64,000 nt of DNA from Promethearchaeota archaeon (GTDB taxonomy: Archaea; Asgardarchaeota; Thorarchaeia; Thorarchaeales; Thorarchaeaceae): positions 7,993 to 71,992 of the forward strand of contig JALVPN010000165.1 of NCBI GenBank assembly GCA_027031765.1, given 5' to 3'. The position numbers and the translations under genes were made by a program. This document shows, in pieces, positions 43,387 to 60,421 of this stretch (position 1 is the first letter of the stretch; every line of letters starts with the position of its first letter). Below the pieces are notes generated by a model. The model made no database searches. It was not told the DNA's origin and saw only the letters and a program-made list of their open reading frames with translations.

Positions 43387-44994
43387 ATGAGAATTCGCGG
43401 AATCGAGGTATCTAATTTCAGGAGTCTCGTGCACTTCGCAATGAAGGATATCGGGAATTTCAACATTCTCGTCGGCCGGAACGGTGCTGGGAAATCCAAC
43501 ATTCTGGATGCAATTGATGTCTTTCTCACAAGTCTGAAACGATATCCGCAGTTTCAAGATGTGCCAGACAGTTGCTGGACAAGGCAGAGTGATTCATCTG
43601 AAATTTCGTTCTCATTTGAACTTGAGTTCACCAATGAAGAGATTGAGGTTCCTACTGACGCTGGGGAAAACAATGGTTCACCATCAACTCATAGCGTGGT
43701 CATTTCTAGAACCTTGCGTCGAGAACAAAAAGAGTGGAGTCTTCGAACCCTCAGCATCAACGACCAGCCGCTGGTGAAGGATTACCAAGAGCTTGATAGT
43801 AGCGATTCTGCTACAGTAGCGGAAGTCCTAAAGCAGATTGCTGGTGCAGTTTCGAAATCATACAGGCTACTTGGGTTCTCTAGGTTTGTCGCGCCTCAAG
43901 CCTCGACGCCCGGACAACGAGTCCCGGCGATTCCCGCGAACGTTATCAAAGGGATCATCTCACTGGAAACTGCGGAAACCTCTGAAGCAGACAATCAGTC
44001 ATACGAGTTGGAAGAGCAGTTCGAAAGAATGAGTGGTGATACGCTTGCGGTTACTGCCACCTCCATTCGCGTTCGAGAGGGACAAACAAGGATTCCTCTT
44101 GAACTTCTCGGGGTCGGGATTCAGACCACTTTGGGTATGGTACACGACCTCCTGAATCCAACTGGAGTAATTCTCATTGAAGAACCTGAGATTCACCTGC
44201 ATGCCGGTCTTCAACGACAGGTTCTTGAAAGACTGAAGGAAGTTAGTGAGAGGTGTCAAGTTTTCATTACAACGCACTCAACAATATTCTTGGATGAATG
44301 CGAATACGGCTCACTCTGGCATGTCAGAAAGACCGGTGGAGTCACGACCGCAACCCGTGTGGAAGGGCTCGATGACTTGAGAAGCATTGTCCTTGGCCTT
44401 GGCATACGGCCTAGTGATGTACTAGCGGCGAACAGCATACTACTCGTTGAAGGCCTCACCGAGAAGATTGTAATCCCCTTTTGGGCGCGCCTTGTGGGGA
44501 AGAGGTTTGAGCCTCCAAAGGTAAACATTGTTCAAATGGGTGGTGTTGGAACGGGACGCTACCATCTTCATCTTTGGAAACAGATGGTAAGTGCCTTCAA
44601 GATTCCATTTTTCATACTGCTGGACGGTGACGAGGCTGCTAGACGCGAAGCAAAGAAGTTGGAAGAAGAACATGGCGTAAATCCAAGGATGATTTACACT
44701 CTGAAGAAGGAATCAATCGAAGACTACTATCCTGATGACTTGACTATTGAGTGTCTTGAGAACATGCTTTCGCTTCCCCCAGACCAACAGCCGAGCTTGC
44801 ACGAAGAGCTACCTTCCTCAGGCAGAGCACGGCACATTGACAAGTTTATCAAGGGGCACAAGCCCAAATCTGGGCCGAACTGGAAAGTACAACTGGCCAA
44901 ATGTATGGTAGAAAAGATGAGGGCTGAGCACTTGGATGATGAAATCAGGGAACTGATACTACAAATTGATGATGTACTTGGCCAGTCATCGTAA
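43387..44994 (+). CDS. OLD-family nuclease (ABC-type ATPase + C-terminal TOPRIM)
   Basis: Walker A 'GRNGAGKSN', Walker B 'ILIEEPEIHLH', 'TTHS'. The C-terminus has 'ILLVEGLTEKIV' and 'LLDGDEA', the TOPRIM Glu and DxD motifs. It sits in a lower-GC island. Confidence 0.75.
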   Translation: MRIRGIEVSNFRSLVHFAMKDIGNFNILVGRNGAGKSNILDAIDVFLTSLKRYPQFQDVPDSCWTRQSDSSEISFSFELEFTNEEIEVPTDAGENNGSPSTHSVVISRTLRREQKEWSLRTLSINDQPLVKDYQELDSSDSATVAEVLKQIAGAVSKSYRLLGFSRFVAPQASTPGQRVPAIPANVIKGIISLETAETSEADNQSYELEEQFERMSGDTLAVTATSIRVREGQTRIPLELLGVGIQTTLGMVHDLLNPTGVILIEEPEIHLHAGLQRQVLERLKEVSERCQVFITTHSTIFLDECEYGSLWHVRKTGGVTTATRVEGLDDLRSIVLGLGIRPSDVLAANSILLVEGLTEKIVIPFWARLVGKRFEPPKVNIVQMGGVGTGRYHLHLWKQMVSAFKIPFFILLDGDEAARREAKKLEEEHGVNPRMIYTLKKESIEDYYPDDLTIECLENMLSLPPDQQPSLHEELPSSGRARHIDKFIKGHKPKSGPNWKVQLAKCMVEKMRAEHLDDEIRELILQIDDVLGQSS

Positions 44995-45503
44995 CCACTG
45001 GGTTTCCTACAATCTATGCCAAGAGTCGAACCGGATTCCAACGGCCTCCACTCGGTTCAAATGTTAGGGCACGCGCGTATCAACTTGGGAGAGCACCGAC
45101 CACCAAGTTCGGTGTTGAGTGTTGCAAAGAGAACACAGTTTGGGACGGTACAAGCCTACTCAAACCTACTCGTACCGGGTTCCTAAATGTCCAGGCCTAG
45201 GCGTGGAGTCCGTCCGAACCAGTGAACAGCTGTTTCCACTTGTTGTGTTCTGTCGTTGTCCGGCTCATTATGCGATTGCCAATGCAGCCTAGCGGCGGCC
45301 CTGAGATTCCCCGACGCACGGCCCCATTGCCTTAGGTGGATTGGTTCTGTTGGGCACATGCATGTGCCCTTGCCCTCTTGGTCATTCTACGGAGAAACAT
45401 GCATCAACACTTGCTACCCGGTCGCACTTCTGGTTTTGTTCATTGTTCCCAGCTGAACGGAACAAGACCATTCATGGTGGAGTTTCAGAGCCATAGCAGT
45501 GAA

Positions 45504-47261
45504 TCACTTCCAGCGCTTCCTTGCGTACTCAACAATCTTCCTTAGGTCATCGATGCCAGTCGTTCTAGCCCCTTCTCTGATATACAGAATCTTCTTCTGT
45601 TTCTTCAGCATCAAGACCGGTTCATCTGCCGGTCTTACGTCAACACGACAGATTTCTTTGTCGTCAACTTGTGGAAACGTGGTGCGGAAAAACTGTCGGA
45701 ACATACCTTGGACTTGGCTGTTGAACTTCTGAGTCAAGGATCTGTCAAAGGTATCGGAGCTTGGTTCGTGATGAAAGCAGGAGTAGTCTCGCTCTAGGCC
45801 AAGTATCTCCCCGTCATTCCCGACTCCGATAAGGAGTACACCGCCATCCGAGTTCATGAATGCGCAGATTGTCTTTATCACGGGGTCGTATAATTCACTA
45901 TTCTTCCCTTGGAGATTGTAGTCCCACAACATCGATGACTTGAACTCGATGAACTGGGACTCCCCCATCTCTATCAACTCCTCGACAGTGGCCCGTTGGA
46001 CTCTCTCAAGTGATGGTGCCCTTGGCCTTGTGTAGAGGTACAGTGCCGCGCATAGCACGGCAAGTGCCACGCTCCACTCGATGACGCGGTAGACAACCAT
46101 TTGCAGCCTGGTTGTGGGCAAGAATGACTTGGGCACTCTGATAATGTATCCGTTCGTCGTTCCAAGATATAGATGGCCACGATCGTATCCCGGAATGAGG
46201 ATTGACTCAAGAACTTCAGGATACCGGCCCATTGTGAGCTCTTCCCTGCTAATCATTGGAGTGACTGACTGGGCATTGTCATCCAAGTCGATGTATGCAA
46301 GTCCCAATGCTGTGACCACATACAACCGCTTGAGGTCTACATCGATGTCAATAGCGTTCACAACTCTCGATGGCAATCCGTCATCACTCGTCAGGCGAGA
46401 ACGAACTAACGTTGCGCTAGTTCCGTTCTCGTCGAAGATGAATAGTCCCTCATTTGTCCCTATGTAGATTCTATGGGTGAGTTGGTAGTAGTCTATGCAA
46501 CTGACACTTAGAGGGTTCCCTACATCGTCTTGGATATGGCTGAAGTTCACGCCGGTTCTCAGATTGAAGAACGCAAAACCCCTGCCTGTGCCAGCAAGAA
46601 GGCAGTCACCACGCACTTTGAGCGACCGTACATTGTTTGAGGGCAGACCATTCTCAGTTGTGATGTTTCGGGTTTGATACGTGGATGGAGCGTACTCAAC
46701 AACCCCGATCTGCTCGCTTCCAAGGTACAATACGGTGTCTGATCCATTACGGAATGTTTCAATGTCCCGAAACTCTACGTCCTCTCCTATGTTTGGGATT
46801 CGGATGGGATCGAATACTACTCGCTGGTTCTCATAGGACCAGTGCATCCAATAGGCTCCTCCATCTGGTCCATCCGTGACCACGTAGCTTAGCCATCTAT
46901 CCCATGTTGTTCCCATATCGTATACTCTGCTGCCACCTGTTGCACTGTCAACTGAATGAGGCCCAGATACAGAGTTGTTAGAGAGGTTGACATAGTAGAG
47001 ACCGCCTATTCCGTTGAAGGCTATCATAGACTCGGCAGCATCGAGGAATATCATTGGCCTGATGCTGTACCCCGGGAAACCATTATCTACATGTGTCCAC
47101 TGCAGGTCCTCAGAGGCTGGCTGAACAAGCCATCGGTCAACACTGGCCGTAGCAGGGAATACCACCATGAATACTATCACAAGCCTGAGGAATCGCTTGT
47201 CAGACCTTAGTTCTCCGAGTTTCGCAAACACTCCTCCTTGTGCTTTTGTTCTGCCCATCAT
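45504..47261 (-). CDS. Membrane receptor: extracellular Reg_prop beta-propeller, TM, cytoplasmic AlbA_2/Schlafen-like domain
   Basis: N-terminal signal anchor. Sequon-rich repeats carry 'ENGLPSNNVRSL' and 'SDDGLPSRVVNAI' (Reg_prop). A TM helix follows, then 'ESQFIEFKSS...ICAFMNSDGGVLLIGVGNDGEILG' (AlbA_2/PF04326-like). Confidence 0.65.
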   Translation of the reverse strand: MMGRTKAQGGVFAKLGELRSDKRFLRLVIVFMVVFPATASVDRWLVQPASEDLQWTHVDNGFPGYSIRPMIFLDAAESMIAFNGIGGLYYVNLSNNSVSGPHSVDSATGGSRVYDMGTTWDRWLSYVVTDGPDGGAYWMHWSYENQRVVFDPIRIPNIGEDVEFRDIETFRNGSDTVLYLGSEQIGVVEYAPSTYQTRNITTENGLPSNNVRSLKVRGDCLLAGTGRGFAFFNLRTGVNFSHIQDDVGNPLSVSCIDYYQLTHRIYIGTNEGLFIFDENGTSATLVRSRLTSDDGLPSRVVNAIDIDVDLKRLYVVTALGLAYIDLDDNAQSVTPMISREELTMGRYPEVLESILIPGYDRGHLYLGTTNGYIIRVPKSFLPTTRLQMVVYRVIEWSVALAVLCAALYLYTRPRAPSLERVQRATVEELIEMGESQFIEFKSSMLWDYNLQGKNSELYDPVIKTICAFMNSDGGVLLIGVGNDGEILGLERDYSCFHHEPSSDTFDRSLTQKFNSQVQGMFRQFFRTTFPQVDDKEICRVDVRPADEPVLMLKKQKKILYIREGARTTGIDDLRKIVEYARKRWK

Positions 47262-48160
47262 ACAGCCCCCAGAAACCATAGAACAGCATAGGTTGCATTT
47301 ATCGTGGCATGTAGAGCCCATGGTTGTGTCAGGTTCTCAGACAAAAGCCACACCATACCCAGCAGAATCCCTAGCCCAAACCTCGTTATGAACGCCGCAA
47401 GAACCGAACCTACCGGATCGAAGATATTACCAACGTACTGGGCGTTAGTGAACAGATGACAAACCGCAAAGAGAGAAGAAGCTAGCAACAGCCCTATGGG
47501 CTTGCTCCGGAATCTCTCGGACAGGCGCTGTTGGACTATAGCCCTGTTGACCAGCTCCTCGACAAATCCAATAATGACCCCTCCGTAGACCACTAGTCCC
47601 ATGAGCCCGACTAATCGCTCAGGGCTGGCAAGGGTTGGGAATTGGTCAATGACCGGCAACAATCGAATTCCAAAGGATATCATGATTACTACCAGCAGGA
47701 AGATAGGCAGGCTACTGGTCCTCCAAGGTTCTCCACCTCGGATTCCCAGTGATTCCAATGAGTAGCCAAAACCACGCCAGAAGATCACGGCAATCGCCAG
47801 ACCTGTAAGGAGAATGGCAATGCTGGCAGAAAGGATGTCAAGGCTTGGAAAGAAACTGAAGAACCACCATCCAACATCGAGATAGATCACTAAAGCGAGT
47901 ACTGCCTCTTCAATAGGGTTTCTAGACAGCTTCTCAGGTCGCTTCAGGTGCTGGCTGTGACTCCACAGAAGTGCGCTGCATCCAATGACATTCAATGCCC
48001 CAAGCACGACAATGTATGATTCAGAATACATGATTGCATATGCCAAACTCGAGGATGTCACCAGAGCCGCCAAGAGAATGATCGCCTTGATATCGCGAGG
48101 GTTCAGTTGAGTTTGTTGCTCCTCTGCCACCTTCGTCACCCCTGCTGGGTGACCCCCCAT
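47258..48160 (-). CDS. CPBP-family intramembrane metalloprotease (CAAX protease/Abi-like)
   Basis: Motif 1 'GFVEELVNRAIV', motif 'FAVCHLF', terminal 'HATINA'. An ATGA-type 4-nt overlap with the downstream receptor gene indicates an operon. Confidence 0.7.
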   Translation of the reverse strand: MGGHPAGVTKVAEEQQTQLNPRDIKAIILLAALVTSSSLAYAIMYSESYIVVLGALNVIGCSALLWSHSQHLKRPEKLSRNPIEEAVLALVIYLDVGWWFFSFFPSLDILSASIAILLTGLAIAVIFWRGFGYSLESLGIRGGEPWRTSSLPIFLLVVIMISFGIRLLPVIDQFPTLASPERLVGLMGLVVYGGVIIGFVEELVNRAIVQQRLSERFRSKPIGLLLASSLFAVCHLFTNAQYVGNIFDPVGSVLAAFITRFGLGILLGMVWLLSENLTQPWALHATINATYAVLWFLGAV

Positions 48161-48275
48161 CTCCCCAAAGAAAAAGCTTGTGCGTCTGAAGCAGCACCAT
48201 ACAGCTCTCGAGTTGGTGGTCTGGCGAGTCTTCCCGTGCAAAGGACTCAAATACTAAGGCAGCTTAGTACTAATC

Positions 48276-49637
48276 ATGATTAGTAAATTCATCGACCGTG
48301 ACGCCGAGCTCTCTCTGCTTGAAAAGGAGTGGAGGGGGCATGGTGGGAAGCTCTTGGTCCTGTACGGTCGAAGGCGGGTTGGCAAGACCAGACTCCTAGC
48401 TGAGTTCGTCCAAGGAAAGGATGGCGTGTTCTATATTGCGAGCGACTCATCACCGCAAGTCCAGATTGAAGAGCTCAAGACGAGAGTTGCGGACTTCCTC
48501 AACGATGCGTTGCTGAGAGACCTTGAACTCAAGAACTGGGAGCAGTTCTTTGAGTATCTTACGAGGAATCTGCCGTCCAAGAGGTTCTATCTCATACTGG
48601 ATGAGTTCTCCTATCTTGTCAAGAGCGATCGGACGATTATCAGTGTTTTGCAAAGGGTATGGGACAGAGTCTTGTCAAATTCCAAGGTCTTCTTGGTACT
48701 GTGTGGATCGGTAATGGGCCTAATGAGGGATGAGGTGCTCTCCTCGGCATCTCCTCTGTATGGTCGGCGAACAAGGGACATCCTACTGAGGGACTTGCCA
48801 TTCAAGCACGCAAGAGAGTTTGTTTCCTTCCCGTTTGCGGAGGCAATGCAGCTGTACTTTGCAGTTGGCGGCGTACCGGAGTATCTGCAGAAGGCATCAG
48901 AGTACCACAGCATGAATGAGTTTCTCAGCCGGGAGTTCTTCAGCACCACGGGATACTTCTATCGCGAGCCGTATTTCATAGTGTCACAGGAGTTCAGGGA
49001 GCTGAGAATCTACTTCTCGATTCTCAATGCTATTGCCACCGGGAGAACACGCCCGACCGACATAGCCAACTTTGTGGGGATTAACGCCCGAAGCGTATAT
49101 CCGTACCTGGAGGGGCTCATTCGGATGGACTTTGTCAAGCGGGAGATACCCGTTCTTGGGAGCCCCAAGCGAGGCGTCTACCGGATCAAGGACTCCCTCC
49201 TTGACTTTTGGTTCGGCTTTGTCTTTGGCCATCGGGATGAGATTGAGCGGGGCTCACTGAACCTAGACAACCTGGATCTGTCAGCCTACTATGGGAGGCG
49301 ATTCGAGGAGTTCGTGAGGAGTGAGGTCGTCCACCTGCTGTTCAACTACACCAAGATGGGACGATGGTGGCATCGTGGTGAGGAGATCGACATTGTTGCG
49401 GTGAACGACTCTGCCAATGAGATACTCTTCTGTGAGTGCAAGTGGAGCGACCTCAAGAAGAGGGAGGCCGAGCAACTCATTCAGGGCTTGCAGCAAAAGG
49501 CGAGGCTCGTGAGCTGGGGCACGGAATCAAGGGTGGAGAGATTTGGCGTGGTCGCACGTAGAGTGCGGGGAAAGGAGGGCCTCCGAAGTCAGGGCTATGT
49601 CGTGTACGATCTGCAGGACATCAAGAGTGTGCTGTAA
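48276..49637 (+). CDS. Archaeal ATPase (Arch_ATPase AAA+ with DUF234 C-terminal domain)
   Basis: 'FIDRDAELSLLEKEW...LLVLYGRRRVGKTRLL' and 'YLILDEFSYL'. The C-terminal region resembles DUF234. Confidence 0.75.
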   Translation: MISKFIDRDAELSLLEKEWRGHGGKLLVLYGRRRVGKTRLLAEFVQGKDGVFYIASDSSPQVQIEELKTRVADFLNDALLRDLELKNWEQFFEYLTRNLPSKRFYLILDEFSYLVKSDRTIISVLQRVWDRVLSNSKVFLVLCGSVMGLMRDEVLSSASPLYGRRTRDILLRDLPFKHAREFVSFPFAEAMQLYFAVGGVPEYLQKASEYHSMNEFLSREFFSTTGYFYREPYFIVSQEFRELRIYFSILNAIATGRTRPTDIANFVGINARSVYPYLEGLIRMDFVKREIPVLGSPKRGVYRIKDSLLDFWFGFVFGHRDEIERGSLNLDNLDLSAYYGRRFEEFVRSEVVHLLFNYTKMGRWWHRGEEIDIVAVNDSANEILFCECKWSDLKKREAEQLIQGLQQKARLVSWGTESRVERFGVVARRVRGKEGLRSQGYVVYDLQDIKSVL

Positions 49638-51622
49638 CCATTGACCCATCACGTTTCGGGAGGATGCGTTTCACGCATGGCCTATGCTCCCCGCTATCCG
49701 CAAGAACATACAGTATCACCCCCTATCCTCACTGTTGAGCTGCACAACACGCATTGGGGCAAGTGACCTCAGTCCACATGGCGGTGAGATTGAGAATCGG
49801 GAGCTACGCCTCCAGAATTGTTTCTGAGAGTCGTGGCAAGTCCTTCAACTTTGACAAGCGTTGAATTGCCGAGTCCGACCTCCACACAGTTGAAGTGGAA
49901 CACAATGGTCAGTCTTGGTATCTGCAGGTATGTCTTCCGGTGGGCTCGTCGCTTGATGGATATGTTCGTCTTCTCAAGCCACCTATCACTACTGGTCCAA
50001 TCCAACAGATTCTGACGAAGTCTATGAAGGTCAATCCAGTGAGTGGTTCACGAACACTCTACATTTGCGAGATTCGAGTCTGCAGCACAGATGCTCAAGG
50101 CAGAGTCCACTGTCACCAAGTGAAGTTCAGTGAGCCGTATCCCCCCACTTTGAGCCTCCTGTTGCCGGCTATGGTACAACATGGGGATGGTTCACCCTGC
50201 CGCTACTGACGTGTGGTCTTCCCGCGTGTCCAGAAAACCAGTATGCGGCCACACAGTACACACTAGGTGGGGTCACCGCCTGCGACGCGCGACACGGGCC
50301 ATAGGCCCCAGATATACCCGCTCACTCCACCCGGCCACCGGTGTGACCGTCCTCCGTGCCTCCAACAAACATATCCAACACCACTACCATGGTCACACCT
50401 CCTGCAAGACCGTTGTCCATAATACGCTCCACTACCATGTTAAGACTCTCGTACGGGGGCTCGTGGGCGTCCACTGGGGCTGGTAGGCCAGAACCGACAC
50501 GGATGCGCAACAGGGGGCGAAGCACAGACAGAAGAGCACTCAGACCAAGTGCCACGTGGGCGCTCTGCCTCGCCCTTGCTACTGTGTGACCACACAGGCG
50601 GGTAGATGGTGGATTGGTGTCAAGTGGCTGTTTCACCTCGGATCCCGGACTGGATTGTCGAGTGGAGCGCCCCCAGTGGGCCCCTCCCTGTGCGCCCATC
50701 CGCTCGCCCAGGCCGAGGCCGGGCTCTCGCCCTCACAGACACGCAAGCCAGTCATGTATGTCGCCCAGATGAGCAGCAGCGCACCATACTCCTCCGCACC
50801 GATAACCCGCAACCGGTCGCCCGCACTCCGCAGCACCCGAACCGCCCCCTCCAGCACCGCTACCGCACCGGCATGGTCACCACTCTCCCACTGACCGGGT
50901 CGTGTGCCAGCCTCCCAAGCCTCACCTCGAACCGCTTCAGTTTTCTCAGAGTCTCCATGAAACGCTCGTGATTGCAGAATCTTCTACGCTCCTGTTCTGT
51001 TGGCGTTTCACCCTGGTATGGCATGCAATCGTAAACGTATGTCCTCAGACGTTCAAAGCCTTCACACACCGCTTCAGAGAACTTCACGAAATCGATACGC
51101 GGCTCATTGAAACAGTGCTTGAGAACCTTCGCAAAAAAACCCCAAATCTATCATGACTGCTGCCCGGTCCAACCGCTGTTGTCCTCTAATGATATCTGAC
51201 CGCCGCCCTCTCGAACGACAGCACGAATTTTCTGTGGCGCGTTGTTGGCGCCCTGACTTAAAGGTCATTGCTGCTGAGTATCTGACGAATTCATTGCTGA
51301 CACACATGGCTCCGGACTGTGCTGCTGACGGTTGTCCATCATGTCAGTCACAGGGGCAGTCTGCATCATGTCTGGCTGTGGGAACTATGCATCTGTGGTC
51401 TCAAACCTGAGATGCACCGTTCCCCCACAGTACGGACACTCAGCGCTTGTTGGCCCCGTCCACCGAACAGTCTTGGTACTGATCTTGGCGCAACAACTTG
51501 TGCAGTATGCCGGGATGTGTGGTATCACAATCATTGGCTCTCTGCCCTTGGCAGGGGTCACGGTCCTACTCCTCACGCCCCTCGCTCTCGACTCTCTTCT
51601 TCGTCCGCCGCAGCCCATTGTC

Positions 51623-52606
51623 CTATCGGTCTGACGCGAGCCGCCGCTTCGCGATGACCGCCACAAAGACGATGGCACCCGCTGCTACGACAGTTCCTGC
51701 AGTGACGGGACCAAGCATTGGGTTGGTGATCTCACTAGTGTTGTTTGCTGTCGTTGTGTCTGTTGTTTCGGTCGATGTTGTGGTGCTGTTCGTGGTCACA
51801 GTGTCCCATATGGACTGCTGGAGAATGAAGAGCAGCGTCCCATTTGACGTATAGTGAAAGTATGTCGGCCAAGCCTGTATGCTCTCATGATCCTGTGCTG
51901 TGAGGTTGAATGCTGCAACGGACCATGTTGGCCTCAAGAGCATCTCCTTTGTGTAGAAAGGTGCCTTGTATATGCAGAACATGGTCGCCGACTCCGTCGG
52001 GTCAGTGAGATACTCTGGGTCCGCACCCGGATAGTACATCGGATAGCCCGGAAGTGGTCTGTGAGTGGTCGGACTGATGAGCACCAGTGAACGAATCCTT
52101 GCCTCGGCCAATGTAGTCCTGAGAACCTCTACGTGAGAGCACTCCAGATCATCCAGTGTGACTGTCTGGGTCCTGACCACTCTCCTAGTCAGGGTCCCAT
52201 TGTCTTGAGAACAGCGGTACGTCACGATCAGTTCGATGAAGTACGTCTGATTGAAGCCCCATACAAACAAGGGATGTTCTCCAGGCAGAGAGTAGCCTGC
52301 AATCTCAAAACCCGAGCTCAAGTGGGAGAGTGGCCGAACTGCATCAACAAGTGACTGGTTGGTCATCAGGTCTGGTACTCTCTCTTCCATCATTTCCGTC
52401 ACATTAACTACTTCGTACTCATACGACGCTCCGTCTATGGTGATATTGAGCGAGGCTGAAGGCCCCACTTCTGCTGTGTCACAGTATGTGCCATCAACTG
52501 TATGCATTGACTCCGAAGCGACGGGATACGGCAGAATGGTGGTTAAGGTCAACACCAGAGCAAACATGAGTGCAATAGCCCATTGTCTGTACACGTACAC
52601 TCGCAT
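51623..52606 (-). CDS. Secreted Thr-rich surface protein with C-terminal TM anchor (copy 2)
   Basis: Signal peptide. It shares 'TIDGASYEYEVVNVTEMMEERVPDLMTNQSLVDAVRPLS' with the 53110-54105 gene. A Thr-rich linker precedes the C-terminal TM plus 'KRRLASDR'. Confidence 0.55.
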   Translation of the reverse strand: MRVYVYRQWAIALMFALVLTLTTILPYPVASESMHTVDGTYCDTAEVGPSASLNITIDGASYEYEVVNVTEMMEERVPDLMTNQSLVDAVRPLSHLSSGFEIAGYSLPGEHPLFVWGFNQTYFIELIVTYRCSQDNGTLTRRVVRTQTVTLDDLECSHVEVLRTTLAEARIRSLVLISPTTHRPLPGYPMYYPGADPEYLTDPTESATMFCIYKAPFYTKEMLLRPTWSVAAFNLTAQDHESIQAWPTYFHYTSNGTLLFILQQSIWDTVTTNSTTTSTETTDTTTANNTSEITNPMLGPVTAGTVVAAGAIVFVAVIAKRRLASDR

Positions 52607-52612
52607 ATCCTC

Positions 52613-53017
52613 CTAGTACCGGTTTGGCCCTACGTAGGCCACCATGTGCCTGACATCGCCGCCGTACCTGGGGTGGACGGGGTTGTACTGAGATGGGAGA
52701 AGAAGCCCGTCTGTGGGATCCTTGTCGTATGGGGAGTTGGATTGACCGTCGAGGCCATCGTCAAGGCAAGACCATATCTGGAAGAACCTGTAGCCAAAGT
52801 TCACACGGTAGTATGCTGTCTGGTTCCAGAGGTGAAGCGTGGGATCCGCGTGGATCCATGTCCACTCTGAGCCATCATGCTGTTCCCACGTATTCCAGAA
52901 CCAATCAAACTCCTGCGGGTCGTATGAGTCCCAGCCCCACAAGGTGAGAGAACTCAACCAGTTGCTGTCCAGCACTGTCTTCGTCTTTCTCTCCACGTTT
53001 ATCTGAATGGCGGTCAC
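52613..53017 (-). CDS. Truncated paralog (C-terminal domain only) of the transglutaminase-like protein
   Basis: The 134-aa ORF is about 75% identical to the last ~110 aa of the 54112-55599 protein ('FDWFWN.WEQHDGSE.TWIHADPTLHLWNQTAYYRVNFGYRFFQIWSCLDD'). It lacks the catalytic core. It may be a pseudogene fragment or a free-standing domain. Confidence 0.4.
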   Translation of the reverse strand: MTAIQINVERKTKTVLDSNWLSSLTLWGWDSYDPQEFDWFWNTWEQHDGSEWTWIHADPTLHLWNQTAYYRVNFGYRFFQIWSCLDDGLDGQSNSPYDKDPTDGLLLPSQYNPVHPRYGGDVRHMVAYVGPNRY

Positions 53018-53109: not shown

Positions 53110-54105
53110 TCATGAGTTTCCTCGCCTCGACCTTGCCAGTATTGCGACTGCCATGAAGGTGACGGCCACTGAAACAGTTCCTACAATGACGGGATTAGGC
53201 AATGGGTTGACAATCTCACTAGTGTTGTTTGCTGTTGTTCTGTCTGTTGTTTCGGTTGATGTTGTGGTATCACTTGTTGTTGTGGTACAATTCGTGACTG
53301 GTGGGCAGAGTGGAATCTGTTCAAGGATAAGGAGTAACGTTCCGTTTGATGTATAGATGAAGAGTACTGGCCAAGCTCTTGTGTTGTTGTCTAGTGGTGC
53401 CGTGAGGTTGTAAGCCATGACAAACCATGTCGGTTCAAGAAACATCTCCTTTGTGAAGAAGGACGCCCTGTACATGCAGGCCCAACCCCACTCACTCGGG
53501 TCGGTGAGGTTCCCTGGGTCACGGCCGAGCTCGTAGAGTGGGTAGCCTGGAAGAGGTCTGTGAGTGATTGGACTGACGAGCTCTAGCGAACGATTCCTTG
53601 CCTCGACCAATGTAGTCCTGAGAATCTCTATGTGAGAGCACTCTAAATCATCCAGCGTGATTGTCTGGATTCCAACCACTCTCCGTACAAAGCTCCCGTT
53701 GTCTTCGGAACAGCGGTACGTTACTACCAGCTCGATGAAGTCTGTCTGATTGAACCCCCATACGGAGATGGTGTGTTCACCTGGCCAGTAGTAGCCCGTA
53801 CCTGCAAAGCCAGAACTCATGCCTGAGAGTGGCCGAACTGCATCAACAAGTGACTGGTTGGTCATCAGGTCTGGTACTCTCTCTTCCATCATTTCCGTCA
53901 CATTAACTACTTCGTACTCATACACTGTTCCGTTTATGGTGATGTTGAGCGAGGGCGAAATGCCCGTGTCTGCCTCGCCACTCTCCTTGCCACCGCTTGT
54001 TGGGGGTGAATCTGGGGCAACGGGATATGGTGAAACGGCAGCCAATGCCAATAGTAGAGTAACCATGAGCACCGCAACCGGGTATCTGAGTATGTACATT
54101 AACAC
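53110..54105 (-). CDS. Secreted Thr-rich surface protein with C-terminal TM anchor (copy 1)
   Basis: Signal peptide 'MLMYILRYPVAVLMVTLLLALAAVSP'. Many sequons, 'TTTSDTTTSTETTDRTTANNTSE', C-terminal TM plus 'RSRRGNS'. Confidence 0.55.
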   Translation of the reverse strand: MLMYILRYPVAVLMVTLLLALAAVSPYPVAPDSPPTSGGKESGEADTGISPSLNITINGTVYEYEVVNVTEMMEERVPDLMTNQSLVDAVRPLSGMSSGFAGTGYYWPGEHTISVWGFNQTDFIELVVTYRCSEDNGSFVRRVVGIQTITLDDLECSHIEILRTTLVEARNRSLELVSPITHRPLPGYPLYELGRDPGNLTDPSEWGWACMYRASFFTKEMFLEPTWFVMAYNLTAPLDNNTRAWPVLFIYTSNGTLLLILEQIPLCPPVTNCTTTTSDTTTSTETTDRTTANNTSEIVNPLPNPVIVGTVSVAVTFMAVAILARSRRGNS

Positions 54106-54111
54106 ATCCTC

Positions 54112-55599
54112 CTAGTACTGGTTTGGTCCTGCGTAGTCTATTGTGTACTTGACATCCCCTCCATACTTGGGGTAGAGCGAGTTGTAGTGATATGGGAGGA
54201 GAAGCCCATCTGTGGGATCCTTGTCGTAGGCGGAAACAGATGGGTCGTTGAGTTTGTCGTCGAGGCAAGACCATATCTGGAAGAACCTGTAGCCAAAGTT
54301 CACACGGTAGTATGCTGTCTGGTTCCAGAGGTGAAGCGTAGGATCCGCGTGGATCCATGTCAACTCTGAGCCATCATGCTGTTCCCACATATTCCAGAAC
54401 CAATCAAACTTCTGCGGGTCATCTGGATCCCAGTCCCACGAGGTGTACGGGTTCTGGTATTCGAGTTCCCAGACTCTCCATGCGTCAACACGGGAGTACT
54501 GTTGCGCATTCTCATGCCACAACAGGCAGTTCTCCCACCATTGGTTCACAACGCTCCATATCTCACACCACGCGTGGGAGCTGGCTCTCACGTCTGTACC
54601 AAACATCTGTCGAGCCGGTATCCCCATTGACCTCAGCAATGAGATCTCCATATTCGATATTTCATCGCACATTCCCTCCCATCCTTCAGATATGATTCTC
54701 AAGTCCGACATTGAACACTCTGTCCGGTAAGCTGGCGTACCACTGCGAATCATCTTGTGATCTACGCAATACGTCATAATGACTGCTGCCCCACTGACAT
54801 AAGGCACACGATAGTCGTCAAGAAGATTTGCTGCGGCCCACCTAATGTTCCAGTCATCGCTGTGGAACAGGGCATACTGGTCTGGAATACCGAATCCATC
54901 GATGCTCCTGAGGCCCTCCCAGTAGTAGTCTGAATTGTTCGAGGCCTGCGACATGACATCCGCTGGTGGGGGAGTTGGCAGGTCGCTCGAACCAAAGGTC
55001 TGCACGAAATTGTATCCAAAGTCCTTGTAGAACACTGCAGCACCAACGCGCGCCACACCTCTCTTCACACCCACCGATGTCAGTGGAACCGTCACCTTCA
55101 GGTCCTTGGAACCGTAACCGTGTATGACACGCATTGAACCTGACACCGAGAACTCCTCTCTGTAGACCTCACGGGTTTCAAGGTCATACCCCTCGAACGT
55201 TACTGGGTAGGTTCCGGGTCTGTCACTGTCGGTCACACACTGGAACCTTATTGTCAGAGTCTTGCCTCTAGTCCAGACACTCGGCACTGTTACCCAGAAG
55301 TAGACCTCATGAAATCCCCTCGTGTTCGCATTATCGATGAGTCCGGCGCTTCTCAAGCGGGTGATAATCTCCTTGAAGCCCGGCATGGGGGCGGTCTTAG
55401 TATGCACGCGACGCAGGTCGACTCCCATGGACGCAAGGATGTCCTCGGGGACATTTGTCGCGACAAGGCATGGTCCAAGATCCTCATCAAGGAACACGGA
55501 TGGCGCCTCTCTCAGTGGTCTTGTTGTCCCTCTCGGGACCGGACAATCAGACGAACCGGCAAGAGGCACTACCTCTTGGGGGGGGGAGTGCATGAGCAT
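54112..55599 (-). CDS. Transglutaminase-like cysteine protease superfamily protein; N-terminus apparently frameshifted
   Basis: 'EGMCDEISNMEISLLRSMGIPARQMFGTDVRASSHAWCEIW' is the transglutaminase-core Cys...His arrangement. A signal-peptide-like segment is encoded in another frame just upstream, across a G9 tract. Confidence 0.65.
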   Translation of the reverse strand: MLMHSPPQEVVPLAGSSDCPVPRGTTRPLREAPSVFLDEDLGPCLVATNVPEDILASMGVDLRRVHTKTAPMPGFKEIITRLRSAGLIDNANTRGFHEVYFWVTVPSVWTRGKTLTIRFQCVTDSDRPGTYPVTFEGYDLETREVYREEFSVSGSMRVIHGYGSKDLKVTVPLTSVGVKRGVARVGAAVFYKDFGYNFVQTFGSSDLPTPPPADVMSQASNNSDYYWEGLRSIDGFGIPDQYALFHSDDWNIRWAAANLLDDYRVPYVSGAAVIMTYCVDHKMIRSGTPAYRTECSMSDLRIISEGWEGMCDEISNMEISLLRSMGIPARQMFGTDVRASSHAWCEIWSVVNQWWENCLLWHENAQQYSRVDAWRVWELEYQNPYTSWDWDPDDPQKFDWFWNMWEQHDGSELTWIHADPTLHLWNQTAYYRVNFGYRFFQIWSCLDDKLNDPSVSAYDKDPTDGLLLPYHYNSLYPKYGGDVKYTIDYAGPNQY

Positions 55600-56406: not shown

Positions 56407-56701
56407 TCCTCAGTTCGTCCATCAGTTCAAGTATCTTCTCCATGTACCGTGTCATGTTCGTCCAGTAGGCCCCCTGAAAGTATACTGCATTGCATCTCTC
56501 GCAGAGCCAGAACACATCATAGTGTTTGTAGGTCTGTTCGAACACGAGATCCTTGACCCTTCTCCGTTCGTCACCCCGGAGTTCCACAAGCTCGCCATTG
56601 CACTTGGAACATCTCGCCCTTGACTCGTCTATCACCGGTTCTATCCCGAACTCCATGAACACCTTCGCCACGCCCTCATCTACACTTCCCCTCACAAGCA
56701 T
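56390..56701 (-). CDS. Mut7-C-like zinc-ribbon domain protein (probably truncated)
   Basis: 'CSKCNGEL...YDVFWLCERCNAVYFQGAYW' matches the C-terminal zinc ribbon of Mut7-C/DUF82 proteins. The N-terminal PIN-like half is absent. Confidence 0.4.
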   Translation of the reverse strand: MLVRGSVDEGVAKVFMEFGIEPVIDESRARCSKCNGELVELRGDERRRVKDLVFEQTYKHYDVFWLCERCNAVYFQGAYWTNMTRYMEKILELMDELRIKTPA

Positions 56702-57587
56702 GGCTGGAACACCGCTGATCGTGCTCTCTATCTCCAGCTGACTCACGAATGCTTGCAACTAGGTCCTCCCGCCCCCATGTCCTGCCCCTAAGCTCTCCAA
56801 GCGCTCGTCGCAACAAGCTTCTCTGTTTTACTGCATTCATGGGAATCTTGAGTATCGAGAAGTAGTCTCTGGTTGCAAAGCTGTTGCATCTGAGCCTGAG
56901 TGGCCAAATGCCATCGTTGCCACCCCGATTCACAGAGAACACGACAGCACGGTCTCCGAGATCCTCCTGCATCGCCACGTATTCGTCATGGGGATCCACA
57001 ATCACAATGGCAGCGCCGAGTTCCAACATCCGAGACGTAATGACTGCCACCGTGTTGCCCTTCCCACCACCTGTAAGCGACAATACTGCAAGATGCCTTG
57101 TAACAAGCTTTCCCACATCAAGTTTCACTCTTACGCCCTCATGTCCCATCAAACTTCCAATCTCGATATGACCCACCGAAAAGATCCTGCTCAGCAGTCC
57201 TGATGATGCTCTTGTAACCCTTGCTCTAGGCCGTGGCGAGAACCTAGGTGACACAATCTTGCCGTCTTCATCGATGTAGCCCACAACCTGTGCCTTGGCT
57301 GTAAGGACTTCGCCATCATGCAGGTCGCTGATACTAAGAAGAGTGGCGAACTCCTCTGGCCCCGTCAGGATTGACTCCGGCATGTTGAGGTTGACAAGTC
57401 CTATGTCTGTGACACGGGCCAACACTGGGTCGGTGACGTTTCGATTTGCGTATGTAATTGCCAAGTAGTCCCCCAGTCTGAGGGGATTACTCTCAGCAGT
57501 GGCTGCATCAAGTCTGACAACTACCTCCCTAGGTGTTGTGGTTCCCAAGAGGTTTCCTATCACGTGCTCCTTCGTCACTATATACAA
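56676..57587 (-). pseudogene. HerA/DUF87-like ATPase, N-terminal fragment only
   Basis: HAS-barrel-like N-terminus ('VVGYIDEDGKIVSPRF'), Walker A 'LTGGGKGNT', 'IVIVDPHDEYV'. The protein then ends after about 300 aa, with no Walker B or C-terminal domains. Confidence 0.45.
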
Positions 57588-59392: not shown

Positions 59393-60421
59393 ATGCAGGT
59401 GGACTCCTCTTACACCCGGACAAAGCCCAATACTTGCAAAAGATGTGTGGATGAAATGGTTCCGGAGCCGCAGGAGAGGTCGAGACGACGGTACATCCCG
59501 CACCTTGCGGCGTCCCGTTTCCGGCCTACAGAGGACTGGACGCACAGTGAGGCGCGAGACGCATTCTTAGCTGCCCGGTTCGACATTGATGTGGACACCG
59601 TGCACTATGAGGACTGCATCGAGGGCATGGAGCGCCTGCCGGACGGGTGTATTGATGTTGTGATTGCTGACCCGCCGTTTGGGATTTCATTCAGCGGGAA
59701 AGAGTCCCTGTACAACCGGGACTCAGGGCTGGTCGTCGATGGCTACCATGAGGTCGAACGGGACTATGCCGAGTTCACGGTCGAGTGGGTCAGCAAGCTA
59801 CCCCGGCTCCTCAAGGAAACGGGTTCGGCATGGATATTCAGCGGATGGACGAACCTGCGTGATGTGCTCAATGCTGTTGCGTTGAGTGGCCTCACTACGG
59901 TCAACCACATCATCTGGAAGTATCAGTTCGGGGTGTTCACACGCCGGAAGTTCGTGACGAGCCACTATCACCTGCTCTTCCTTGTCAAGGATCCGAAGCG
60001 CTACTACTTCAACAAGATACAGCACTATCCCCTCGATGTCTGGGAGATAAAGCGGACATACATGCGCGGCCAGGTCAAGAACGGGACGAAACTGCCCGAG
60101 CAACTCGTGATGCGCTGCATAGACTTCACATCACGCCCGGGAGACCTGGTACTTGACCCGTTCATGGGCAATGGTACCACTGCTGTGGCATGCAAGGGCT
60201 CCTTCAGACATTTCATCGGGTTTGAGATTAACCCGAACATGAGGGGGATTATAGAGTCGAACCTCTCCCTGATTGGGCCTGGCGACCTGTACGTCCCATA
60301 CTCGGCACGGAGTGACCCCCTTGTTGACAGTGCTAAGAAGAAGTTCTTTGAACCGGAGGGCCCGCACCGGGACCGCAAGGGCGACCAGTCATCCATAGAA
60401 CACTGGACAGGCCCTGATTGA
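59393..60421 (+). CDS. DNA methyltransferase, beta-class (N4-C/N6-A family, PF01555-like)
   Basis: Motif IV 'VVIADPPFG' precedes motif I 'VLDPFMGNGTTAVA' (the beta permutation). The start is uncertain and may be an internal Met. Confidence 0.8.
   Translation: MQVDSSYTRTKPNTCKRCVDEMVPEPQERSRRRYIPHLAASRFRPTEDWTHSEARDAFLAARFDIDVDTVHYEDCIEGMERLPDGCIDVVIADPPFGISFSGKESLYNRDSGLVVDGYHEVERDYAEFTVEWVSKLPRLLKETGSAWIFSGWTNLRDVLNAVALSGLTTVNHIIWKYQFGVFTRRKFVTSHYHLLFLVKDPKRYYFNKIQHYPLDVWEIKRTYMRGQVKNGTKLPEQLVMRCIDFTSRPGDLVLDPFMGNGTTAVACKGSFRHFIGFEINPNMRGIIESNLSLIGPGDLYVPYSARSDPLVDSAKKKFFEPEGPHRDRKGDQSSIEHWTGPD

Follow-up and report, generated by a model that had tools for sequence, protein, structure and literature searches.

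Prokaryotic Schlafens (pSlfn) have been established by experiment as sensor-fused tRNases in phage defence (PMC13056530, PMC13462974), and AlbA_2 domains are significantly associated with defence loci (PMC12680541). According to the main texts of the two Schlafen surveys, phage-triggered tRNase activity was shown only in 2026 and every characterised sensor is intracellular. The sensors described there are cytoplasmic Ig-like, DUF262, HisKinase-like, Csx15/CARF-like, NACHT and pAgo parts, and these main texts mention neither a membrane-spanning or extracellular sensor nor a protease partner. Propellers located outside the membrane are found in the Bacteroides HTCS sensors (BT4663, BT3049), where an extracytoplasmic Reg_prop-type propeller, a transmembrane (TM) helix and a cytoplasmic output are combined. 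HTCS sensors carry two propellers and a Y_Y_Y domain, their output is of the kinase/receiver/AraC type and they are devoted to bacterial nutrient sensing. In regulated intramembrane proteolysis (PrsW/RasP acting on RsiW; Notch), an extracellular cue leads to proteolysis in the membrane and to the release of an active cytoplasmic domain. As regards the CPBP proteases, the myxosortase MrtX is known to cleave beside the TM helix of the single-pass receptor TraA; it requires an invariant Cys and has dozens of unlinked substrates that end just after the TM helix (PMC11980579). Multi-pass CPBP/Abi proteins are also tied to membrane sensors, as passages of PMC5854430 and PMC3578759 describe SpdC controlling WalK and Abx1 interacting with CovS.

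The two-gene locus described here shares features with each of these systems. It lies in a window of 64,000 nucleotides, i.e., the whole stretch of Promethearchaeota archaeon DNA that was analysed, and consists of a CPBP gene followed by a receptor gene (Table 1). Like RorSlfn5 and EcoSlfn7 (main text of PMC13056530) and the CRISPR-associated Cash (main text of PMC13462974), the receptor has a single AlbA_2/Schlafen nuclease domain with the Ex4(E/D)xK motif, and it resembles the pSlfn proteins of these texts in its variable fused sensor, in coupling sensing to an effector and in being associated with defence genes. In contrast to those proteins, it carries the Schlafen domain at the C-terminal end, after a TM helix, and its gene is coupled to that of a CPBP protease. 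HTCS sensors have two propellers and are bacterial; the present receptor has one propeller, belongs to an archaeon, uses a nuclease as its output and has a protease as partner. The likeness to MrtX and TraA lies in a CPBP glutamic intramembrane protease associated with a single-pass surface receptor; here, however, the pair is one-to-one and adjacent, an invariant Cys is lacking and a large catalytic domain follows the TM helix. The partners of SpdC and Abx1, as far as the passages cited above describe them, are histidine kinases and do not form a translationally coupled pair with them. By analogy with RsiW and Notch, the domain released here would be a nuclease and not a transcription factor or an anti-sigma factor. 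The initial annotation had not recognised the architecture as a described one, and it is indeed absent from the main texts of the 2026 Schlafen surveys. Compared with those texts, the membrane receptor and its CPBP partner constitute a new variant, in which a known prokaryotic Schlafen defence enzyme is wired differently.

Table 1. Coordinates of the CPBP-receptor gene pair and of its features in the window.
Feature	Position	Strand	Remarks
Gene of the predicted CPBP/Rce1-like glutamic intramembrane protease	47258..48160	-	300 aa from ATG 48160; PF02517
Receptor gene	45504..47261	-	585 aa; signal segment, beta-propeller ectodomain, TM helix, cytoplasmic Schlafen/AlbA_2 domain
ATGA stop/start overlap of the two genes	47258..47261	-	Read from sequence
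CPBP motif 1, EExxxR (E201, E202, R206)	47543..47560	-	Codons read directly; invariant in 8 partner CPBPs
CPBP motif 2, FxxxH (F231, A232, H235)	47456..47470	-	Invariant in 8 partner CPBPs
CPBP motif 3, HxxxN (H284, N288)	47297..47311	-	Invariant in 8 partner CPBPs
Receptor N-terminal hydrophobic segment, residues ~23-46	47136..47195 (residues 23-42)	-	Hydropathy, alignments
Extracellular beta-propeller, residues about 45-380, Reg_prop-related	46122..47129	-	~Seven blade units; 6 sequons
TM helix, residues 388-411, then basic cluster T-R-P-R	46029..46100	-	Hydropathy; AF2 helix 384-411
Cytoplasmic Schlafen/AlbA_2 domain, residues 434-568	45558..45962	-	PF04326
Predicted catalytic Ex4ExK motif ESQFIEFK (E434, E439, K441)	45939..45962	-	Aligned with ESASIEFK in 5yd0 (rat Slfn13)

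The 4-nt overlap of the two minus-strand genes, already annotated, was seen again in the sequence together with both open reading frames. The letters at the junction (...GCT GTA TGA TGG GC...) form an ATGA through which the two genes are predicted to be translationally coupled. A longer CPBP product could start at TTG 48250; the public calls are of 290 aa for this gene and 584 aa for the receptor. At the other loci, the CPBP and receptor genes, as called or from reading of the open reading frames, lie on the same strand and are separated by 3-61 nt, except at L008, where the gap is of about 216 nt as called and the start is probably truncated. The upstream gene had been assigned to the CPBP family by its motifs, all three of which are present, and it matches the Rce1-like PF02517 model above threshold (E = 6.1e-14, 52.5 bits vs a cutoff of 22.4; Pfam). 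With about 7-8 hydrophobic segments by hydropathy, it codes for a multi-pass membrane protein. As the query of a word-indexed homologue search, this CPBP matched only itself; the partner CPBPs were taken from the receptor loci and then modelled as their own HMM. Pairwise identity among the eight is 23-37%, and the three catalytic motifs are still invariant. The protein is an intramembrane protease with intact catalytic motifs, for which proteolysis is predicted.

Two hydrophobic segments were found in the receptor by hydropathy (residues 23-46 and 388-411), both with basic residues on the cytoplasmic side. In the family, the basic motif (D/N)(K/R)(K/R)F(L/M)(R/Q) is conserved ahead of the first segment, and P..A-T-A-S comes after it. 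A hydrophobic N-terminal segment is thus present where a signal anchor had been proposed; in its order of KRFLR, hydrophobic stretch and P..ATA|S, it resembles a cleavable Sec signal peptide no less than an anchor, and cleavage at this site is conjectural. The second segment, which the AF2 model also renders as a helix, is the single TM helix expected before the cytoplasmic domain. A conserved V-P motif precedes it and a basic cluster follows; in the family alignment, its N-terminal half is rich in small residues and it finishes with W-x-W-Y. The ectodomain contains 6 N-x-S/T sequons where shuffled sequences would give 2.9 (P about 0.05), and the tail contains 0. With an enrichment of about two-fold, the "many" of the initial annotation was an overstatement. 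One sequon column is common to 13/15 family members.

The ectodomain has a beta-propeller fold, roughly seven-bladed, with blade units centred near residues 84, 131, 181, 224, 268, 317 and 367. The Reg_prop repeats read in it by eye were retrieved at the level of the family, profile and fold, but not by Pfam in the window protein itself, in which PF07494 gave no match even at E<=1. Direct Pfam assignment was hence dropped in favour of the indirect evidence. Reg_prop was matched at E<=1 in 6/10 family members (best 1.8e-5; Pfam). A profile built from four ectodomain sequences reached proteins with strong Reg_prop repeats at E 1e-47 to 1e-32, whose own Reg_prop E values are, for instance, 6.5e-37 (P0040) and 6.3e-26 (P0052), and the top 10 Foldseek matches of the propeller were all BT4663. 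The Bacteroides HTCS sensors are also within reach of the profile search. By this indirect route of profile search, family-level matches and Foldseek ranking, the propeller is Reg_prop-related. We know of no established ligand class for single Reg_prop propellers.

The cytoplasmic domain had been called AlbA_2/Schlafen-like, in agreement with a PF04326 (SLFN_AlbA_2) match well above threshold (E = 2.2e-18, 67.3 bits vs a cutoff of 25.3; Pfam) covering residues 434-568. Weak, direct structure-sequence matches to SLFN12, rat Slfn13 and SLFN11 were also obtained. The Ex4ExK motif is retained in this protein and, according to the alignment, in 9/9 AlbA_2-tailed family members; the ESASIEFK of 5yd0 with which it aligns is taken by us to hold E205/E210 of rat Slfn13. 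The aspartate of the 5yd0 GVDD, presumably the third acidic residue of the active site (rat Slfn13 D248, SLFN11 D252), is replaced in the window protein by N482, with D483 adjacent; most homologues have D in this column and P0045 has no acidic residue there. In the main texts, Ex4(E/D)xK is defined as the catalytic motif by PMC13056530, and Ex4ExK likewise by PMC13462974. On this sequence basis, the cytoplasmic part is a Schlafen-type nuclease domain with an intact Ex4ExK, and RNA cleavage is predicted. Its closest AlbA_2 relatives include receptors with bPH_2 membrane domains, and a weak dCache-like match was found among them in P0025 only. Cache domains are typical signalling sensors.

The receptor family is rare and tiny (about a dozen clusters at 50% identity), all its members come from metagenome assemblies, and those with a name are Asgard archaea (Thorarchaeota, Lokiarchaeota). 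As found so far, the two-gene module occurs almost only in Asgard-type archaea. Two metagenome scans returned no family member, the first giving no confirmed relative and the second only three distant propeller matches, and one viral-contig scan returned no family member either. A CPBP gene lies directly beside the tailed receptor, on the same strand, in 8/9 informative loci, over protein identities of 26-48% and with unrelated flanking genes, which bears out a pairing conserved in other genomes. At L009 the gene order is reversed and the CPBP gene is still adjacent on the same strand. Moreover, CPBP identities and receptor identities, compared pair by pair, rise and fall together (r = 0.65). 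With the partner-CPBP HMM, this protein class was found beside tailed receptors only: it detected no gene in the four loci (L039-L042) of two tail-less relatives, nor at the more distant propeller-only matches (L015-L038). The Schlafen-tailed P0038 (L012) has no CPBP neighbour; a 238-aa gene downstream of it was considered as a divergent CPBP and rejected after domain searches and the partner-CPBP HMM.

In three members (P0035, P0037 and P0036), the Schlafen domain behind the same ectodomain and TM helix gives way to an unrelated tail of about 170 aa, and the two such loci that were fetched (P0035 and P0037) both keep the CPBP neighbour. Because swapped-tail members keep the CPBP gene and tail-less relatives are without it, the protease tracks the tailed receptor and not the Schlafen domain. 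Tail swapping of this kind is what one would predict for a sensor whose effectors can be exchanged. The alternative tail (P0035/P0037/P0182) gave nothing in Pfam (up to E = 10) or PHROGs (up to E = 0.01), one sub-threshold chance match in NCBIfam and chance-level matches in a PDB sequence search (best E 0.086); its AF2 model is poor (pLDDT 44.6). Its pattern Y-x-W-x-D-K-Y...H-D-R-W-L-I-S-E gives an impression of an HKD/PLD-like nuclease, which we do not count as evidence.

The pair had been placed between an OLD nuclease and an ATPase in a low-GC island, and this setting was recovered. An AAA_15 protein with an OLD-like TOPRIM (43387-44994) and an ATPase_2 + DUF234 protein (48276-49637) flank it (Pfam), and over the stretch from about 42.7 to 49 kb the GC content is 0.46-0.52, down from 0.57-0.61. 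Neither flanking gene recurs beside the pair in other loci, and both were rejected as parts of the system. Because no tRNA, no convincing flanking direct repeats and no Rfam match were found, the low-GC stretch is not callable as an integrated element. In PADLOC-DB 2.0, matches were given by neighbours only (GajA/Old/AriA-like, PDC-S27); the CPBP matched no families and the receptor only pAgo at chance level (E 0.027). A PDC-M23/Hachiman-like pair lies directly downstream of the module at L013, and no recognisable defence neighbours were seen at L001, L005, L009 and L011. Since most homologous loci are without such neighbours, the link to defence islands is a partial one.

From the identities of the domains, the logic of the topology, the conserved catalytic residues, the co-diverging pairing and the exchanged tails, we read the pair as a conflict module that joins sensor and effector across the membrane and in which the Schlafen RNase is gated, probably through cleavage by the CPBP; we give this reading about an even chance. 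The receptor would be a single-pass surface protein with a glycosylated, roughly seven-bladed propeller outside and a pSlfn nuclease domain in the cytoplasm. The propeller would detect a cue outside the cell or on its surface, for example a virion, a change of the envelope or of a glycan, or a competitor. The CPBP would then act on the TM/juxtamembrane part shared by the receptors, most likely by cleavage, leaving the cytoplasmic domain free or able to oligomerise, and the Schlafen domain would cut tRNA or another RNA, with a growth arrest resembling abortive infection. We infer a defence system from what the domains are and from surroundings that are defence-like in part; the ligand, the cut in the receptor, the RNA attacked and the role in defence are inferred as well. 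A bolder and unlikely version makes the pair an Asgard transmembrane innate-immune receptor, in which recognition of a virus or a foreign surface pattern by the propeller and then regulated intramembrane proteolysis by the dedicated CPBP would release or activate the Schlafen tRNase or, in sister proteins, another effector.

The pairing and co-divergence would fit binding as well as cleavage. The CPBP could be a non-cleaving accessory partner that binds the receptor TM helix and tunes or restrains signalling, for which SpdC and WalK, or Abx1 and CovS, offer precedents in the passages cited above (PMC5854430, PMC3578759) and for which a helix rich in G/A/S in most members would suit helix-helix packing. 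This reading is nevertheless unlikely: the three catalytic motifs are invariant at 23-37% identity in eight CPBPs, and catalysis appears to be under selection, since some of these motifs should have been lost in a partner with a structural role alone. Regulation by SpdC and Abx1 is regarded as non-proteolytic. An ordinary environmental receptor, whose propeller senses a nutrient or glycan and whose AlbA_2 domain is a tethered or released nucleic-acid-binding regulator of expression, is rather unlikely. The best structural matches, glycan-sensing HTCS ectodomains, would agree with it, as would the AlbA_2 relatives with bPH_2 or weak dCache-like (P0025) parts and the several loci without defence neighbours. 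However, Ex4ExK is strictly kept, an HTH or other output domain is missing, an unrelated tail is swapped in among close relatives, and a rare, patchy family in a low-GC island beside an OLD nuclease is unlike a housekeeping sensor.

Cleavage could also serve the maturation or sorting of a surface protein, a myxosortase-like CPBP clipping the receptor anchor and shedding or re-anchoring the glycosylated propeller, with the cytoplasmic domain as an incidental or quality-control tag. The V-P motif, TM helix and basic cluster do resemble a tripartite sorting signal, TraA is cut by MrtX at its C-terminal anchor (PMC11980579), and the CPBP weakly matches the MrtS, MrtJ and Mrt_core models (NCBIfam). 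The Mrt scores are, however, 17.6-21.9 bits vs cutoffs of 75-130, and the TM helix is not preceded by the invariant Cys that MrtX cleavage needs. Sorting signals end soon after the TM helix, whereas a conserved 170-aa catalytic domain follows here. The tail-less relatives, which most resemble sorting substrates, are without a CPBP neighbour, and sortase-type enzymes have many substrates and not one adjacent gene. We consider this explanation quite improbable. Finally, annotation as bacteriocin self-immunity proteins ("Abi/CAAX immunity") is widespread among CPBP proteins. PMC11529989 mentions an example from an Asgard mobile element. A bacteriocin or toxin immunity protein co-transcribed by chance with an unrelated membrane protein is nonetheless highly improbable, since the pairing outlasts sequence divergence and an inversion of gene order, which is unexpected of a chance neighbour, and no bacteriocin or toxin gene was seen in any locus.

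If the sensor-effector reading is true, outside-in sensing and proteolytic gating would be added to the control of Schlafen effectors. The pair would also point to a specific candidate substrate of a prokaryotic CPBP protease; to our knowledge, very few substrates are known in this very large family. The exchangeable cytoplasmic tail represents a natural experiment in which sensor and effector functions are separated. The occurrence of the family in Thor- and Lokiarchaeota bears on where eukaryotic Schlafen and Rce1 biology came from, direct ancestry being no part of the claim. Should the innate-receptor version be true, a Toll/Notch-like outside-in immune logic would be built in Asgards, the closest known prokaryotic relatives of eukaryotes, from the Rce1 and Schlafen families that eukaryotes also use. 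In that case, the bacterial bPH-TM-Schlafen proteins and those with an extracytoplasmic, tentatively dCache-like, domain before TM and Schlafen parts would belong to an unrecognised class of surface-sensing Schlafen receptors.

Pfam searches placed the upstream of the two overlapping genes in the CPBP family of intramembrane proteases, with all catalytic motifs present, and the C-terminal domain of the downstream product, a beta-propeller membrane receptor, in the SLFN_AlbA_2 family, as the initial annotation had proposed (Table). The 4-nt overlap that it had noted between these minus-strand genes was read in the sequence as an ATGA tetranucleotide, which indicates that the genes are translationally coupled. 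Public gene calls on the same DNA used slightly different starts, giving 290 aa for the CPBP protein and 584 aa for the receptor. Only three full-length receptor homologues were found in an index of 5.8 billion proteins (46, 44, and 33% identity). An exhaustive profile search added P0035-P0039, P0044, P0045, and P0047, together with two tail-less relatives, and one further member, from Thorarchaeota (locus L014), came from a genome scan. The named sources of the family are Candidatus Thorarchaeota (L014) and Candidatus Lokiarchaeota (P0037, MBD3157488.1), and locus L001 carries an archaeal TBP gene; the window, too, probably comes from an Asgard archaeon.

A same-strand CPBP gene immediately adjoins the receptor gene in the window (minus strand) and at loci L001-3 (P0002), L004/L013 (P0003), L005 (P0004), L008 (P0035), L009 (P0037, CPBP gene downstream), L011 (P0045), and L014. 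The conserved pairing in other genomes that had been anticipated was thus observed, with L012 (P0038), which has no CPBP neighbour, as the exception; L010 is cut at the gene start and is uninformative in this respect. An HMM of the partner CPBPs gave E 1e-112 or better in paired loci (6.5e-75 for the truncated L008 copy), and the remaining 30-odd loci, among them all four from the two tail-less relatives, gave no match. The catalytic motifs of the CPBPs do not vary, and the pairwise identities of CPBPs and receptors co-vary (r = 0.65, the points being non-independent). Because the genes flanking the pair vary from locus to locus, the conserved unit is the CPBP-receptor pair, and the OLD nuclease and ATPase of the window were rejected as members of the system. 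The partner CPBPs also carry an N-terminal N-P-(I/L/V)-E-E motif outside the canonical CPBP domain, in which all seven full-length proteins share the P and the second E, the eighth (L008) being truncated there.

Two hydrophobic segments were detected in the receptor by hydropathy (residues 23-46 and 388-411). The first has a conserved basic motif, (D/N)(K/R)(K/R)F(L/M)(R/Q), in front of it and ends in P..A-T-A-S; it reads as either a Sec signal peptide or a signal anchor. This segment and its basic motif, together with the basic cluster directly after the second segment, put residues ~45-385 on the extracellular side and the Schlafen domain in the cytoplasm in the predicted topology. The distribution of N-glycosylation-type sequons agrees with this topology, with six in the extracellular part, where shuffled sequences give 2.9 on average, and zero in the intracellular part; one sequon column is common to 13 of 15 relatives. 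An AlphaFold2 model computed from a 4-sequence alignment (mean pLDDT 73, and 80-91 across residues 160-380) was all-beta over residues 54-377; a long helix (384-411) comes next, and then an alpha/beta domain. In a Foldseek comparison with the PDB, the best 10 matches were all to the periplasmic sensor of BT4663, a Bacteroides hybrid two-component system (E ~1e-11), and BT3049 was also among the matches. The blade motif G-x(2-3)-G-hydrophobic recurs at residues 84, 131, 224, 268, and 367 which, with two weaker copies judged by eye near residues 181 and 317, would give seven blade units spaced by 43-50 residues. The initial annotation had assigned these repeats to Reg_prop. The 24-residue Pfam model did not match the window receptor even at E<=1, but weak matches were obtained in six of ten family ectodomains (best 1.8e-5). 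Moreover, when a profile built from four ectodomains was searched exhaustively with HMMER, 9258 proteins were returned at E<=1e-3, headed by about a dozen family members and followed by 900-1400-aa proteins, each matched in many stretches; two of these were checked, and both match Reg_prop strongly (E 6.5e-37 and 6.3e-26). Since the profile search and the family matches are all consistent, the ectodomain is called Reg_prop-related rather than a Pfam-threshold member, so that the assignment stands on profile, family, and fold evidence and fails as a direct Pfam match.

In the cytoplasmic tail, the ESQFIEFK stretch of the receptor (E434, E439, K441) aligns with ESASIEFK of the rat Slfn13 structure 5yd0, the aligned residues of which we take to be the catalytic E205 and E210 (rat Slfn13 numbering). 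N482 of the window receptor, with D483 beside it, is aligned with the latter D of GVDD in 5yd0, presumably D248, which would be the third acidic residue of the catalytic site; in most relatives this position is D. The stretch fits the Ex4(E/D)xK signature, and Ex4ExK is kept in all nine Schlafen-tailed family members. In two studies from 2026, prokaryotic Schlafen tRNases are described as having Ex4(E/D)xK for their catalytic centre (PMC13056530; PMC13462974, E17/D22/K24). An unrelated tail of ~170 aa was found in P0035, P0037, and the fragment P0036, which have the ectodomain and TM helix in common with the family; the P0036 ectodomain is nearest to that of the Schlafen-tailed P0004. This alternative tail shows the pattern Y-x-W-x-D-K-Y... 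and H-(D/Q)-R-x-(L/V)-(I/L)-x-E, and has a free-standing homologue (P0182). Searches of Pfam, PHROGs, NCBIfam, and PDB sequences gave it no significant match, and its AF2 model was too poor for use (pLDDT 44.6). As a CPBP gene is still the neighbour of P0035 and of P0037, the CPBP accompanies the tailed receptor chassis, whichever tail it carries. The same pattern is known from conflict systems with exchangeable effectors.

Features of the window and of related loci.
Feature	Location	Strand	Remarks
CPBP gene	47258-48160	minus	PF02517 Rce1-like/CPBP, E 6.1e-14
Receptor gene	45504-47261	minus	PF04326 SLFN_AlbA_2, E 2.2e-18, residues 434-568
ATGA tetranucleotide	47258-47261	minus	CPBP stop codon and receptor ATG combined
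N-P-(I/L/V)-E-E	47918-47932		CPBP residues 77-81, also given as N81-P82-x-E84-E85; shared by partner CPBPs
OLD-family ATPase-TOPRIM nuclease	43387-44994		flanks pair; PADLOC models GajA, Old, AriA matched
ATPase_2 + DUF234 protein	48276-49637		flanks pair; PADLOC candidate PDC-S27, E 5.6e-43
GT4 glycosyltransferase	14570-16189	minus	C-terminal part also matches 'GT4-conflict' PF20706, E 7e-9
Sequon-rich surface proteins, paralogous (327 and 331 aa)	51623-52606, 53110-54105	minus
134-aa ORF between surface-protein genes	52613-53017	minus
Transglutaminase-core protein adjoining surface-protein genes	54112-55599	minus
HerA/DUF87, Mut7-C, N6/N4 methylase set	56676-57587, 59393-60421; L006 1-869	minus, plus;
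Alternative-tail receptor P0035	L008 770-2452
Alternative-tail receptor P0037	L009 5250-7019
PDC-M23A/B pair (Hachiman-like HamB helicase + 257-aa partner)	L013 3724-7636		E 1e-40 and 3e-255

Regarding the genomic context, the location of the pair between an OLD nuclease and an ATPase in a low-GC stretch, already noticed at the outset, was recovered: both neighbours were found, and GC drops from 0.57-0.61 to 0.46-0.52 over ~42.7-49 kb. No tRNA, flanking direct repeats, or Rfam element was found by which a mobile element could be delimited. PADLOC has no model for the CPBP or the receptor. At L013, an uncultured archaeon contig, a PDC-M23A/B pair lies immediately downstream of the CPBP-receptor pair, and the loci beyond the window and L013 showed no recognisable defence neighbours; the defence-island signal is real but partial. 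According to published work, AlbA_2 domains of bacteria show a significant association with defence loci in every clade tested (PMC12680541). Elsewhere in the window, a lower-GC region (51-60 kb) contains a HerA/DUF87 ATPase, a small Mut7-C (PIN-like) protein, and an N6/N4 DNA methylase, which are further defence-type genes near the pair. The two paralogous surface proteins have Thr-rich stalks and C-terminal anchors, and Pfam returned nothing for the copy checked (51623-52606). The ~2 kb at 49640-51620 has no ORF >125 aa and a GC of up to 0.63, above genome background; Rfam gave nothing at gathering score and, at E<=1, a single match of chance level (lncRNA family, E 0.79, 51520-51613). Overlapping imperfect palindromes (TACTAAGGCAGCTTAGTACTAATCATGATTAGTA) at 48252-48285, in the short stretch that separates the divergent CPBP and ATPase_2/DUF234 genes, run into the start of the latter and may be an operator; the ATPase_2/DUF234 protein has a winged-helix region (TrmB, HTH_45, and IclR matches, all sub-threshold). 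A perfect 18-nt palindrome, GGGCACATGCATGTGCCC, lies at 45352-45369, within the 510 bp that separate the convergent OLD and receptor genes, where GC is locally 0.54, above that of the surrounding genes.

Taken together, what the initial annotation observed is confirmed, its interpretation is supported as far as architecture and conserved pairing go, and we read the pair as a putative transmembrane sensor-effector module. The domain assignments, the reasoning on topology, the conserved residues, the pairing, and the exchange of tails are established by the analysis. The propeller would sense an extracellular cue, the CPBP partner would act on the TM/juxtamembrane region shared by the receptors, and the Schlafen domain would then turn into an active RNase, stopping growth. 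Cleavage of the receptor by the CPBP is suggested by the invariant CPBP active site, the one-to-one coupling, and the precedent of myxosortase, which has the TraA receptor as a substrate and cuts it next to the TM helix (PMC11980579). Likewise, activation of the Schlafen domain by release or oligomerisation is suggested by the filament-, dimer-, or hexamer-dependent activity described for Cash (CRISPR-associated Schlafen), SLFN11, and the defence protein RorSlfn5 (PMC13462974; PMC13056530).

Alternatively, the CPBP may gate the receptor non-proteolytically, for which SpdC/WalK and Abx1/CovS offer parallels. It might also shed the ectodomain in a sortase-like manner, but Mrt models scored far under cutoff and the receptors have no invariant Cys, which argues against shedding. 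The other rivals concern function, the receptor being a signalling receptor with a non-defence role or the CPBP being a bacteriocin immunity protein. For the sensor-effector module, a defence function and proteolytic gating are plausible.

The effector part of the receptor is a member of the established prokaryotic Schlafen (pSlfn) kind. In the main texts of the pSlfn surveys consulted, the cytoplasmic sensors and partner systems named include HisKinase-like, HTH, Ig-like, DUF262, Csx15, NACHT, pAgo, methyltransferase, and BREX or restriction-modification associations, and membrane-spanning or membrane-anchored Schlafens are absent (PMC13056530, PMC13462974). The words membrane, transmembrane, and propeller are all absent from the main text of PMC13056530; in that of PMC13462974, "transmembrane" is absent, the one "membrane" passage seen stands in a reference title, and "protease" refers only to other CRISPR effectors or laboratory reagents. 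What we rate as new here is the combination of a Schlafen effector with extracellular sensing, tethering to the membrane, and an intramembrane protease of its own. The AlbA_2 proteins most closely related to the receptor tail (P0005-P0007, P0009, P0011, P0012, P0025) are membrane proteins of other designs, all of which keep Ex4ExK: either two TM segments with bPH_2 and a C-terminal AlbA_2, or a TM segment, an extracytoplasmic domain of ~290 aa (weak dCache-like match, P0025 only), a second TM segment, and AlbA_2, with one named source for the second design, a Bacteroidota MAG (P0011). No CPBP neighbour was found at the P0005 locus (L007). No published description of "extracytoplasmic sensor - TM - Schlafen" receptors was found, and the existence of these membrane relatives hints that such surface-sensing Schlafen receptors may form a wider class.
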